A stretch of 64,000 nt of DNA from an uncultured Candidatus Saccharibacteria bacterium (GTDB taxonomy: Bacteria; Patescibacteriota; Minisyncoccia; Phycocordibacterales; UBA9973), in assembly GCA_964505155.1 (NCBI GenBank), contig CAZDGL010000001.1, forward strand, positions 71,058 to 135,057. The letters run 5' to 3'. Made by a program: the position numbers and the translations under genes. Below the pieces are notes generated by a model, which saw nothing but the letters and a program-made list of their open reading frames with translations, was not told the origin of the DNA and did no database searches. Shown here piece by piece: positions 51,819-54,735 of the stretch; the first letter of the stretch is position 1; every line of letters begins with the position of its first letter.

Positions 51819-51881
51819 TTTAATCTCCTTTAACGAGAAGAAGGGAGGACAGACCTAAATCCTCCCTTCTGGAATGGCAGC

Positions 51882-52958
51882 TTACGCTGCCAGTTCCATG
51901 ACTCGCTTGCTAGCAAGCTCTAGGGCAATACGGTCGTCCGCGATAGGTTCGTCGCGCGCGATCTGCGTCAGACCACCTGCAAGTCCCCATACCGTGCGAG
52001 GATCCCCATACCAGTCTTCGTGCTGCTTGGCAATCTCGAAACCATTGGTGATCATCTTCTTTCCGAGTCTGACAATGCGAAGGCTCAGAACCTTATCGAG
52101 AACCTCTTCGAGATTGTTACCAATCTTGAAGGTCCGCATGGCTTCGATCTTCTGCTCGTCCTCGTCTGCGGAGGCTTCGGCATAGCGGATCAGTTCGGCT
52201 TCGAGACCCACAAAGGCTTTCTCGTTGGCTTCACCGATGTGTCGGATGTTGATCTCAGCAATCTTCTGAGCACCCCAGACCCGATGGTTTCCGCAAATAT
52301 ATTCGTAGAAGAAGGTCATGATAGCGAATGCGGAGGCACCAACCTCGGAATTGCGGAGGAAGAAACCGCGCGAAAGACCACCACCCGGACCCTTCTCGAA
52401 AATGCGACGCTCGTTGTCCACCATGAAGGCAAACATGGAGCGATCACCGAGGTAGAGACCGCGCGATCCGTCGAATGCTGCAGGAGCGGGCTTCCAGATA
52501 CCCTCGGCTTCGATCTCAAGAAGTCGACGCGTGATATCCGAATTCCAGATCCGGTCGTAGCGATCCGAATTCATGGAACGAAGCAGATCGATCTGCTTAC
52601 CCGTCTTGTGGAGCATCATGTTGGTCTTCTTCTCGGAGTCTTCCAGACCGTGGTTCAGGTTGGTAGCTGCGAGGTGAGCAGGAAGCTTGGAAAGATACGA
52701 TGCAGGAGCATCCGCATCCCGGCAAAGCTGTCCGAAGGACCAGTTGGAGAGGGAATATTCGTTGTCGTTGTTGACAAGAATGAGCTTGTCGTTGTCGGCA
52801 TCGGGCTTCACCCGGAAATTCGCGACATTCACCTGCTCGTCGTAGTAGGCATTGTCATGATAACCAAGCGCGGCATTGTGCAGATCCTGCACGCTGGAGA
52901 AACGCTCGTCCGCAGTACGAGTGGACCACTGATAGGATGCGTCCATAAGAACCGTCAT
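51882..52958 (-). CDS. DUF932-like phage/plasmid protein in GC-rich island
   Basis: 358 aa; local GC about 55-60% vs about 43% genome; SRGLYLGDRSMFAFM...RNSEVGASAFAIM block; long antisense ORF (52020-53105) is a GC artefact. Confidence 0.4.
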   Translation of the reverse strand: MTVLMDASYQWSTRTADERFSSVQDLHNAALGYHDNAYYDEQVNVANFRVKPDADNDKLILVNNDNEYSLSNWSFGQLCRDADAPASYLSKLPAHLAATNLNHGLEDSEKKTNMMLHKTGKQIDLLRSMNSDRYDRIWNSDITRRLLEIEAEGIWKPAPAAFDGSRGLYLGDRSMFAFMVDNERRIFEKGPGGGLSRGFFLRNSEVGASAFAIMTFFYEYICGNHRVWGAQKIAEINIRHIGEANEKAFVGLEAELIRYAEASADEDEQKIEAMRTFKIGNNLEEVLDKVLSLRIVRLGKKMITNGFEIAKQHEDWYGDPRTVWGLAGGLTQIARDEPIADDRIALELASKRVMELAA

Positions 52959-53134
52959 TGGGAACTCCTGTGTTTGATGTTTACGAGGTCATTTCTAGAC
53001 GATTGGATTCTAGAAGTCAACGACTATTTTCAATCTTTTTTTGTTCCCATTTCGTTCATGAAAATAAAAGCGCGCATGGTTGCCGTTCCCATCCTGCTGG
53101 ATTGAGTCGGTTCTAGCACATCAGTTTTTAGAAG

Positions 53135-53926
53135 TCAACTGTCGGAATAAGAAGTTTCCAGAGCATCGACCAGCTTACCTAGATCCGCTTTATAGAATCC
53201 GCAGCAATTCAGTGTGTTCGGTTCAATGATAAACCAATCGTCCCCACGTCGACCGACGTCTAGGACAAACGTTTCATGAGGTACCCATCGATTGAGTATG
53301 TGATCCACAAAGTTGTAGGCTTCGGAATCAATATCGGCACTAAACCATGCTCGACCATTCCGTCGATATGAGCTAGCTGTTGCGATACCATAATCAACAA
53401 TCCAAAAACGGTATTCGACATCAATCTGCCGTGGTTCACATACCTGAACAAAGGTTTCACCCAACTGATCCAATGGATCACCGTTACTGGTTCGAACGTG
53501 TCTGAGAATGCTATCTCTCCACGGAAGATAATTATCCACATCAATTATCTGTCCATTGAAGATCTTGCTATCCTCAATCGGACGAATGAATCGAGGAAGC
53601 TTGTCTACCGGAATTTCGGAAAACCTACAAACCTGAGCATCGTGATTGAGCATCAGGCTCCCCCAATGATCAAGTTGATTCAAAAAATGAACTGATTTGA
53701 TGTCAAAAACACCGGGATACCAACCATACTTGCGAGCAGTCTTGATCATGGAATACGTCCCCATGCAGATTGCATTCGGAGTATCGGTGTCAGGTTCAGG
53801 GATCAGGGTTCCCTCGAATGGAACGGTCTTGTGAATTGAGAAAGGAATTTCACGACGTTCCAATGCATTGATTAGATCGTCGTGGCCTTGTTCATTTGCG
53901 ATATTTTCGTGAATATACCAGTGCAT
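53135..53926 (-). CDS. ATP-grasp-like domain protein
   Basis: LPRFIRPIEDSKIFNG and EYRFWIVDYGIATASSYRR resemble ATP-grasp P-loop-like and E-x-R-hhh-G motifs. Confidence 0.35.
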   Translation of the reverse strand: MHWYIHENIANEQGHDDLINALERREIPFSIHKTVPFEGTLIPEPDTDTPNAICMGTYSMIKTARKYGWYPGVFDIKSVHFLNQLDHWGSLMLNHDAQVCRFSEIPVDKLPRFIRPIEDSKIFNGQIIDVDNYLPWRDSILRHVRTSNGDPLDQLGETFVQVCEPRQIDVEYRFWIVDYGIATASSYRRNGRAWFSADIDSEAYNFVDHILNRWVPHETFVLDVGRRGDDWFIIEPNTLNCCGFYKADLGKLVDALETSYSDS

Positions 53927-54735
53927 TAAATGGTCCTGATTACGTTTACATACATCGGAAGCTTAGTTGCGGCATCTGAGGGATCATTATAATAAAGTCC
54001 GTAAGCATTCATCTTGAAAAACTCAGGAATTGGTAGAATGAGATTTTCATACACCTGCGGATTCATCATATCGAAGTAGAGGTTTCGCAGATACTTTTCT
54101 GGTCGAGGAGCGACGGTTTCGTACTGATCAGTCATTCCGTAGATCTGAATCAAATCGTTCCAGTGACCACCTTCGGGCATATAGATTGAGGGATCCCATC
54201 CTCGCATAAACTCATCAACTTGATTTGGCAATTCTTCTAGTTTTGGAAAGTCTACCAGTTCAGTATCGTATCGTGCTAGGATCCAGTAGTCATAAAGTTT
54301 ATGACCGAATTGCATATCACCATATGTAGCAGCTAACGAAGCAACTGCTGAAATCGAATAGAGTTGTGATGCGATGTTGTGGAGGTTCTGTTCAGAATAA
54401 AACGGATTGCCGTCCCACTTGGTACGCATGAATTCACGCATCCGCTTTGGGAACACAAACGTCTTCTGAGGTTCTACCAGAATTTCCTTAATGGTAGGAT
54501 ACTTCTGAAGAATGACATCCTCAGGATTTTCCAGAGACTCCATCCCATGAGTCGTACCCTTTTCGGCAGACCAACTAGGAATATCGTAATTGTCAGAATA
54601 CGACCACGCATGAGCAAAGACGTCAGTATCATATCGGTCAATGATTTCCCGATGATACTGTTCGTGAACCTTGGTGAGACGAATATGCCGTGGTTGCCCA
54701 AATAGGAGAAGTCCGACTGTTAGATCTTTACTCAT
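53926..54735 (-). CDS. hypothetical protein (269 aa), coupled to ATP-grasp gene
   Basis: ATGA-type overlap with downstream gene. Confidence 0.35.
   Translation of the reverse strand: MSKDLTVGLLLFGQPRHIRLTKVHEQYHREIIDRYDTDVFAHAWSYSDNYDIPSWSAEKGTTHGMESLENPEDVILQKYPTIKEILVEPQKTFVFPKRMREFMRTKWDGNPFYSEQNLHNIASQLYSISAVASLAATYGDMQFGHKLYDYWILARYDTELVDFPKLEELPNQVDEFMRGWDPSIYMPEGGHWNDLIQIYGMTDQYETVAPRPEKYLRNLYFDMMNPQVYENLILPIPEFFKMNAYGLYYNDPSDAATKLPMYVNVIRTI

Follow-up and report, generated by a model that had tools for sequence, protein, structure and literature searches.

The hyperplastic regions of T4-type phages reportedly harbour mobile cassettes that are bounded by promoters, as Arbiol, Comeau and Krisch are said to have described in 2010, and the concept of the 'moron' is likewise said to go back to Hendrix. 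Among ATP-grasp enzymes, the R2K clade is recognized by a '2K' signature, i.e. an absolutely conserved lysine at the end of RAGNYA strand 2 and a second lysine or arginine in the next loop (PMC4431377). Members of the R2K.2/DUF4343 family are predicted to attach peptides to proteins in conflicts between phage and host (Burroughs, Zhang and Aravind 2015, PMC4431377), and phage-borne members have been noted in jumbo phages (PMC7824862). Ribosomal protein S6 is the target of RimK, a structural relative, and eIF2 that of the R2K relative CDC123 (PMC4431377). Here, we analysed a stretch of 64,000 nucleotides (the window) of contig CAZDGL010000001.1, the source of which is a distant T4-like myophage that encodes homologues of the baseplate wedge proteins gp6/7/8 and a gp32-type single-stranded DNA-binding protein. 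Three adjacent genes were followed up, which encode a DUF932-related protein, an ATP-grasp enzyme of the R2K clade and an unannotated protein of 269 amino acids (aa) (Table 1). A sequence-only reading had taken them for one horizontally acquired, GC-rich island that could code for a coupled module.

The analysis favours the view that these are three independently inherited accessory genes, brought together by the ordinary mosaicism of a T4-type accessory segment, and that they form neither one island nor an operon-level module; we put the probability of this reading at about 0.75. It is carried by the identities and folds of the genes, their composition, the boundaries of the cassettes and the lack of conserved linkage; we infer the enzymatic activities and targets of the three products as well as the function of the promoter- and terminator-like sites.

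Table 1. Features of the accessory segment and its surroundings; positions refer to the window
Feature	Position	Strand	Evidence and remarks
358-aa DUF932-related protein	51882..52958	-	Pfam DUF932 22.7 bits; phrog_1362 6.3e-27; sole GC-rich gene of the region
263-aa R2K-clade ATP-grasp amidoligase (predicted; DUF4343/R2K.2 type)	53135..53926	-	ExN motif; single-gene cassette, absent from the sister phage
269-aa protein, GT-A glycosyltransferase-like fold (predicted)	53926..54735	-	Small unannotated family of this phage group and marine cyanomyophages
Promoter-like site P1, TTGACT-N17-TAGAAC	53110..53138	-	Read from the sequence; stop codon TGA of the ATP-grasp gene lies inside the -35 hexamer
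Promoter-like site P2, TTGACT-N17-TAGAAA	52992..53020	-	Start codon of the DUF932-like gene 34 nt downstream
Terminator-like hairpin closing the DUF932 unit	51839..51870	-	12-bp stem, -21.2 kcal/mol, z -3.17
361-aa antisense open reading frame, not a gene	52020..53105	+	Codon-bias artefact
HNH-type free-standing endonuclease (predicted)	51019..51615	+	phrog_3322 endonuclease 2.9e-15, phrog_3118 HNH 2.7e-8; PHROG models only
65-aa open reading frame with 39-bp tandem duplication	51621..51818	-	Duplication 51713-51790; Tandem Repeats Finder 2.0 copies, 94% matches
RNA ligase	56781..57884	-	Pfam PHA02142 OB-fold 1.6e-31, RNA_ligase 7.2e-26; phrog_968 2.2e-94; 2.9 kb upstream of the ATP-grasp gene, same strand

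The composition of the three genes differs. The DUF932-related gene has a GC content of 54.0%, compared with 42.4% for the whole window (z = 3.37 relative to all equally long windows, only 0.1% of which are as high), and every top-ranked 1-kb GC window overlaps it. The rise in GC that had been noted here is therefore real, but the 55-60% attributed to it is too high, no 400-bp window exceeding 54%, and it is limited to this one gene, with GC values of 0.60/0.38/0.64 at codon positions 1/2/3. The ATP-grasp gene (44.4%, z 0.5) and the 269-aa gene (42.8%, z 0.1) are at background level, and atypical composition is thus confined to one of the three genes (z 3.4 versus 0.5 and 0.1), at odds with a GC-rich island that comprises all of them. 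A lesson for annotation is that a compositional anomaly of one gene had been over-extended to its neighbours.

Homologues of the 269-aa gene were found on three metagenomic contigs, and comparison with them gives a view, at the level of base pairs, of one T4-type accessory slot that is filled by different genes. In the contig of a sister phage (L006), nucleotide identity to the window is 73% for the 82-aa and 269-aa genes, which are followed by an open reading frame (ORF) of 46 aa. A block with 88% identity starts precisely at P1 and ends with the hairpin (window positions 53138-51838), while the flanks remain at 73%. In this contig the hairpin is directly followed by the promoter of the transfer-messenger RNA (tmRNA), and neither the ATP-grasp and HNH genes nor the 65-aa ORF are present. 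The TGA stop codon of the ATP-grasp gene and that of the 46-aa ORF lie within one and the same TTGACT hexamer, the mark of a clean cassette swap. On contig L008 the order is different: the DUF932 gene (61% aa identity) precedes the 269-aa homologue, an unrelated 67-aa ORF and the tmRNA gene. The ATP-grasp gene occupies a slot in which two relatives have small ORFs unrelated to it, and this slot appears to be a hot spot of cassette exchange. The occupants following the 269-aa gene are the R2K gene at 53135-53926 of the window, a 46-aa Cys/His ORF at 2111-2251 of L006 and the 67-aa ORF at 2064-2267 of L008.

The linkage of the three genes was also examined from the side of the R2K gene. A scan of viral contigs with the single R2K protein found nothing, and an alignment-based scan was successful. 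In total, 53 other phage loci (L001, L002, L004 and L009-L059 except L056) were collected, with flanks of at most 5 kb per side. Within this distance, neither a DUF932-like gene nor a homologue of the 269-aa gene was present at any of the 53 loci, and no conserved small ORF that might encode a partner or substrate was shared directly beside the R2K genes beyond close relatives. Several neighbours of the closest R2K homologues were considered and found to be unrelated to the DUF932-like and 269-aa genes, namely the upstream gene in the Brevundimonas phage Bambus, the 354/360-aa genes of L009/L010 and the 193-aa gene of L009. The PADLOC defence models gave zero matches for all three proteins, as did NCBIfam. 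In addition, the phyletic affinities differ: the DUF932-like protein has its relatives in elements of Rhizobiales, the R2K enzyme in T4-like and jumbo phages of proteobacteria and the 269-aa protein in this phage lineage and in cyanomyophages.

It is thus very unlikely that the three genes represent one acquired island coding for a coupled module for nucleotide or amino acid ligation and modification, or for anti-defence. Such an island would account for the adjacency of the genes on one strand, the 1-nt overlap of two of them and their position in an accessory zone with many homing endonucleases. However, only one of the genes is GC-rich, the DUF932 gene has its own promoter-like sites and terminator, the sister phage lacks the ATP-grasp gene, the other two genes are swapped in L008, and the expected partners are found at none of the 53 R2K loci, so that the coupled module that had been proposed finds no support. 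A role of the three genes in DNA or RNA modification or in anti-defence remains speculation. The row of genes that had been described does exist, but it is read in the reverse direction: because all three genes are on the minus strand, the order of transcription is 269-aa gene, ATP-grasp gene, DUF932-like gene.

It should be noted that several observations weigh against the reading of three independent genes or against parts of it. The stop codon of the 269-aa gene and the start codon of the ATP-grasp gene overlap by 1 nt (TAATG), which would permit translational coupling in the window phage. Glycosyltransferase genes are also found near the R2K gene of Tunturi_5, and at locus L011 there is a faint GT2 match only. 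The three genomes compared are compatible both with a gain of the ATP-grasp gene by this phage and with its loss from the relatives. The DUF932-like protein scores 22.7 bits (E 9.5e-5) against a Pfam cutoff of 23, i.e. 0.3 bits short. The GT-A model of the 269-aa protein is only moderately confident (pLDDT 68.7), and the position of the DxD motif reads R-x-D (the invariant motif R155-x-D157, following strand 150-155; the family consensus is TRTD).

The first two of these points, the codon overlap and the glycosyltransferase neighbours, bear on the possibility that the ATP-grasp enzyme and the GT-A-like protein catalyse a two-step modification, for example the glycosylation and aminoacylation of a protein, DNA or envelope target. 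In Tunturi_5, genes annotated as galactosyl transferases follow the R2K gene at a distance of 1-2 kb, and at L011 the R2K gene is followed by a GNAT gene, the faint GT2 match being in the gene after that. Against this, the GT-A-like gene is retained in the sister phage without the ATP-grasp gene, its family is near none of the 53 R2K genes, and phage genes are, as a rule, tightly packed; we consider a joint modification pathway improbable.

Under the preferred reading of independent inheritance, each gene has to be considered on its own. The assignment of the GC-rich gene to the DUF932 type, made in the sequence-only reading, is borne out. A match to PF06067 was obtained for 30 of 36 full-length relatives, which are 33-49% identical to the window protein (best E 1.1e-11), and three close relatives score 20.6-21.8 bits on the Pfam DUF932 model. 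An exhaustive HMMER search with the protein retrieved 2057 clusters (50% identity) at E<=1e-3. Since 30/36 of its relatives match the family model, the window protein is, by transitivity, a member of a divergent DUF932-related subfamily. Invariant residues include W11, R14, Y134, C222, N224 and H240. Profile and sequence searches of the PDB gave no significant match to a solved structure, and a literature search on DUF932 (UPF0380, YfjQ, TIGR03299) did not find a functional study.

The protein is 57.6% identical over its full length to a protein of the Mesorhizobium phage Cp1R7A-A1 (gp027), which is annotated as DUF932. The closest cellular relatives (52-57% identity) are encoded in genomes of Pseudaminobacter and Bradyrhizobium, all of them Hyphomicrobiales, and the next-best genomes reach at most 38%. 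The closest DUF932 homologues looked up by cluster were metagenomic sequences only. The codons TTG, TTA, TCT, TCA and AGT are avoided in the gene, and the neighbouring genes use them freely. Together, the restricted Rhizobiales relatives and the codon avoidance suggest that the gene came from a high-GC mobile element of alphaproteobacteria. Neither the GC content of the gene nor its C/G-ending codons fit the phage, and its nearest kin are in high-GC Hyphomicrobiales and one Hyphomicrobiales phage. Cellular DUF932 copies adjoin integrases; the neighbours of the Rhizobiales DUF932 genes had no match in Pfam. In a set of bacterial genomes (L061-L140; Acidobacteriota and other metagenome-assembled genomes), genes of the subfamily recur beside an ORF of ~107 aa that looks SpoVG-like by eye (39 loci). 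Tyrosine-integrase-like ORFs are present at 16 loci and primase/replicase-like ORFs at 10 loci, again labelled by eye, and these neighbourhoods are consistent with integrative mobile elements.

The anatomy of the DUF932-related gene resembles that of a moron, i.e. it has two promoter-like sites of the sigma-70 type, a terminator-like hairpin, an atypical composition and a position that varies among relatives, all recognized as patterns in the sequence. An AGGAG ribosome-binding site precedes the ATG. The P1 motif is also present after the 46-aa ORF of the sister phage, and the repeat TTGACTTCTA occurs twice here. Sites of the form TTGACW-N17-TANAWW have five matches in the window, P2 included, all on the minus strand, compared with 0.61 expected, and none of 100 shuffled sequences reached five; two of the other matches lie just upstream of tRNA or tmRNA genes. 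The stem of the hairpin is shared with the sister phage, where it is followed by TTTTTT, and the block of high identity ends at 51838. The sites probably function as promoters and terminator, so that the gene would form a moron-like unit with its own transcription and translation signals. A mini-ORF of 20 codons (MGTATMRAFIFMNEMGTKKD) lies between P1 and P2 at 53030-53092 on the minus strand, and a similar one is found in L006 at ~2300-2365 (MGTATMRVFYFMNEMGTKNQK); it could encode a leader peptide or be functionless.

The DUF932 gene is GC-rich in both relatives as well (55.0% versus 41.8% for the flanks in L006, and 57.6% versus 49.2% in L008), which indicates that its acquisition predates the divergence of these phages. 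It would thus have been acquired before the window phage and its sister split, and then been kept under purifying selection. A recent lateral exchange of the cassette between the two phages may also have taken place. The divergence at four-fold degenerate sites is 0.31 for the DUF932 gene, lower than the 0.54 of the 269-aa gene, as such an exchange would predict, but strong codon bias likewise lowers apparent synonymous divergence. The GC content at third codon positions is 0.64-0.68 in three phages of differing background (window 51882-52958, L006 2425-3501, L008 178-1260). The composition of the gene has not drifted towards that of the respective phage, despite a four-fold-site divergence of 31% between the window and L006.

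The 361-aa ORF antisense to this gene had been regarded as an artefact, and rightly so. That the GC-rich stretch represents a genuine overlapping plus-strand gene rather than a foreign gene has next to no probability, and this candidate was rejected. The antisense frame is, indeed, free of stop codons over the whole gene in the window, L006 and L008. However, its translations in the window and L006 share 73% identity, compared with 93% for the sense frame, and the substitutions are distributed as 17/10/92 over sense codon positions 1/2/3, with 92 of 119 at third positions. The frame is open because TTA, CTA and TCA are nearly absent from the sense gene (1 of 54 Leu/Ser codons), and it is interrupted in the Rhizobiales homologues.

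The product of the second gene is, by sequence and predicted fold, a genuine R2K-clade ATP-grasp enzyme, in agreement with the earlier ATP-grasp call. Both Pfam models are matched above threshold (R2K_3 with 52.8 bits, cutoff 26.3; R2K_2 with 45.6 bits, cutoff 26.2). The 121 homologues that were found all contain both R2K domains (PF14243, PF18299); the closest is 48% identical, and most are encoded on large phage-like contigs, with a few in bacteria. An AlphaFold2 model computed from an alignment of 57 sequences has a pLDDT of 93.4 and exhibits the three-domain ATP-grasp fold (pre-ATP-grasp, RAGNYA and kinase-like). In the alignment, D223, E235-P-N237 and R173 are invariant or nearly so, and they map to the predicted strands 220-227, 230-237 and 170-177. 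The conserved residues R115, K121, E171, R173, D223 and E235-x-N237 are at the catalytic positions defined by Burroughs et al. The basic pair, judged by predicted secondary structure, would consist of R115 at the end of strand 112-116, an arginine instead of the lysine, and the invariant K121 in the following loop. The ExN motif in place of ExGD places the protein in the R2K.2/DUF4343 family. Searches of the PDB with the protein gave nothing significant, phmmer against PDB sequences gave zero matches, and biochemical data for R2K.2 or R2K.3 members were not found in the literature searched.

From its family, the 263-aa protein is expected to be an ATP-dependent amide-bond ligase. It would bind ATP, activate a carboxylate as an acyl-phosphate, and ligate to it an amine, most likely an amino acid. 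The target would most likely be a carboxylate on a host or phage protein, as with RimK and LysX/ArgX. Together with the 269-aa protein, a fold could thus be assigned to two unannotated proteins, one an R2K ATP-grasp enzyme and one a GT-A-like protein whose cyanophage homologues are listed only as 'hypothetical'.

The proximity of R2K genes to RNA-repair genes is the only part of the results with wider potential. At 14 of the 53 R2K loci, a gene for an RNA ligase (PF09414) or RtcB lies no more than 3.3 kb away on the same strand. When the loci are dereplicated at 70% identity, such a neighbour is found in 10 of 40 clusters; of the 14 ligase genes, about 12 are located upstream of the R2K gene. 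At some of the other loci, the R2K gene is close to a TilS-like PP-loop gene or to DUF2828/DUF7788 genes. The R2K gene of the window fits the pattern, being 2.9 kb downstream of an RNA ligase gene and beside 21 tRNA genes and the tmRNA gene. These counts are suggestive only, because there is no background rate for comparison, i.e. for the frequency of RNA ligase genes in any 10-kb accessory window, and the loci are not phylogenetically independent. One interpretation is that phage R2K (DUF4343) ligases are a recurrent part of neighbourhoods for RNA repair and translation maintenance, and modify a ribosomal protein, translation factor or tRNA-associated factor when host defences attack translation; they would then be the counterpart, in bacterial viruses, of CDC123 and its action on eIF2. 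The known substrates of CDC123 and of RimK (PMC4431377) are in line with this, but about 75% of the R2K loci have no RNA ligase or RtcB neighbour, and we regard the idea as a long shot, though a somewhat better one than the two-step modification. If the link survives a proper control, it would be the first functional handle on an uncharacterised family related to the eukaryotic CDC123.

The third gene encodes a protein without any match in Pfam or NCBIfam, and its best PDB hit (E 0.058) is not significant. The predicted model nevertheless has the nucleotide-diphospho-sugar transferase (GT-A) fold. Some GT-A families are metal-independent and do without DxD, so that the protein may still be active. 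Because of the R-x-D at the DxD position, the protein is designated GT-A-like and is not assigned to a CAZy glycosyltransferase family. A profile search with the family returned 26 relatives. In an alignment of seven members, the sole non-trivial Pfam match was Sulfotransfer_2, which came from one poorly aligned protein of cyanophage S-CAM9 that was later dropped. S-CAM9 has three paralogues of the family in a cluster with genes for a nucleotide-sugar epimerase, a pyrophosphorylase, a glycosyltransferase, a HAD protein and a sulfotransferase. The 269-aa gene would thus encode a nucleotide-sugar-transferase-like protein that is native to the phage lineage and common to the sugar clusters of cyanomyophages. 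The S-CAM9 paralogues (L003; 2966-3619, 5001-5729 and 6919-7662) are all annotated as hypothetical, are within one 10-kb sugar-modification cluster and adjoin a protein that matches Sulfotransfer_2 (8e-9).

The flanks of the three genes agree with the earlier description of an HNH gene and a small ORF with a 39-bp tandem duplication, the former being supported by PHROG models only. The HNH-type gene, which has a GC content of 33.8% (z = -2.06), is an insertion beside the tmRNA gene that the sister phage lacks. The 65-aa ORF has no family match in Pfam or PHROG and no counterpart in L006 or L008. Three low-GC ORFs on the plus strand (51019-51615, 56093-56815 and 57919-58701) break the block of minus-strand genes, two of these ORFs being located on either side of the RNA ligase gene. 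Like the first, the third matches HNH or homing-endonuclease PHROGs. The sole match of the second is a PHROG of unknown function; from its N-terminal sequence, a GIY-YIG-like endonuclease is suspected.

The accessory segment (51.0-55.0 kb) is located between a minus-strand tRNA/tmRNA array with 21 tRNA genes and the RNA ligase gene, and is outside the T4 core, as had been concluded previously. The phage genome comprises 151 kb, and its best gp6 matches, in cyanophages and in Pelagibacter and Methylophilales myophages, are only 30-37% identical. A megablast search of positions 51000-56000 against GenBank phages gave zero nucleotide matches. The tmRNA gene at 50747-50990 (minus strand) is of the permuted (two-piece) alphaproteobacterial type (Rfam tmRNA_permuted 69.1 bits, cutoff 47; alpha_tmRNA 50.4 bits, cutoff 50); ARAGORN places it at 50656-51022, with the tag peptide VADNDNVPAYARDLRVAA. 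L006 and L008 also have this tmRNA, and a promoter-like site (51025-50997) is ahead of it. The type of the phage tmRNA hints at an alphaproteobacterial host. One tRNA gene called by ARAGORN at 50072-50146 (minus strand; Rfam tRNA 54.8 bits) is of undetermined identity and has a four-base 'tgtg' anticodon, which could reflect an unusual anticodon loop or a mis-call.

Compared with described enzymes, the R2K protein shares with the R2K.2/DUF4343 family both Pfam models, the fold, the acidic residue of strand 4, the ExN motif, the arginine in the first kinase-like strand and its occurrence in phages, and probably also the two basic residues around RAGNYA strand 2. It differs in that its closest homologue is only 48% identical, in the arginine at the strand-2 position and in being encoded by a T4-like phage of 151 kb and not by a jumbo phage. 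With RimK and LysX/ArgX it is only 9-14% identical and it belongs to neither family, and no LysW-like or S6-like partner is encoded near its gene. Unlike GT-A glycosyltransferases, the 269-aa protein is matched by no sequence model and has R-x-D in place of DxD, and unlike the genes for gp066, gp062 and gp068 of S-CAM9, which are in sugar clusters, its gene has no adjacent genes of sugar metabolism.

DUF932 (PF06067) proteins of phages, plasmids and integrative elements form a large family, of which the window protein, with its 57.6% identity to a Mesorhizobium phage protein, is a member; it differs from the others in being encoded in a T4-like phage with 42% GC, within a unit that has its own promoter-like sites and terminator. 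In contrast to characterised morons, these signals are known from sequence patterns only. Nevertheless, own promoter-like sites and terminator, atypical composition and a shifting position are features that the DUF932 gene has in common with morons and T4-type cassettes, and the slot next to it, like those of T4-type mobile cassettes, is filled by different genes in different phages.

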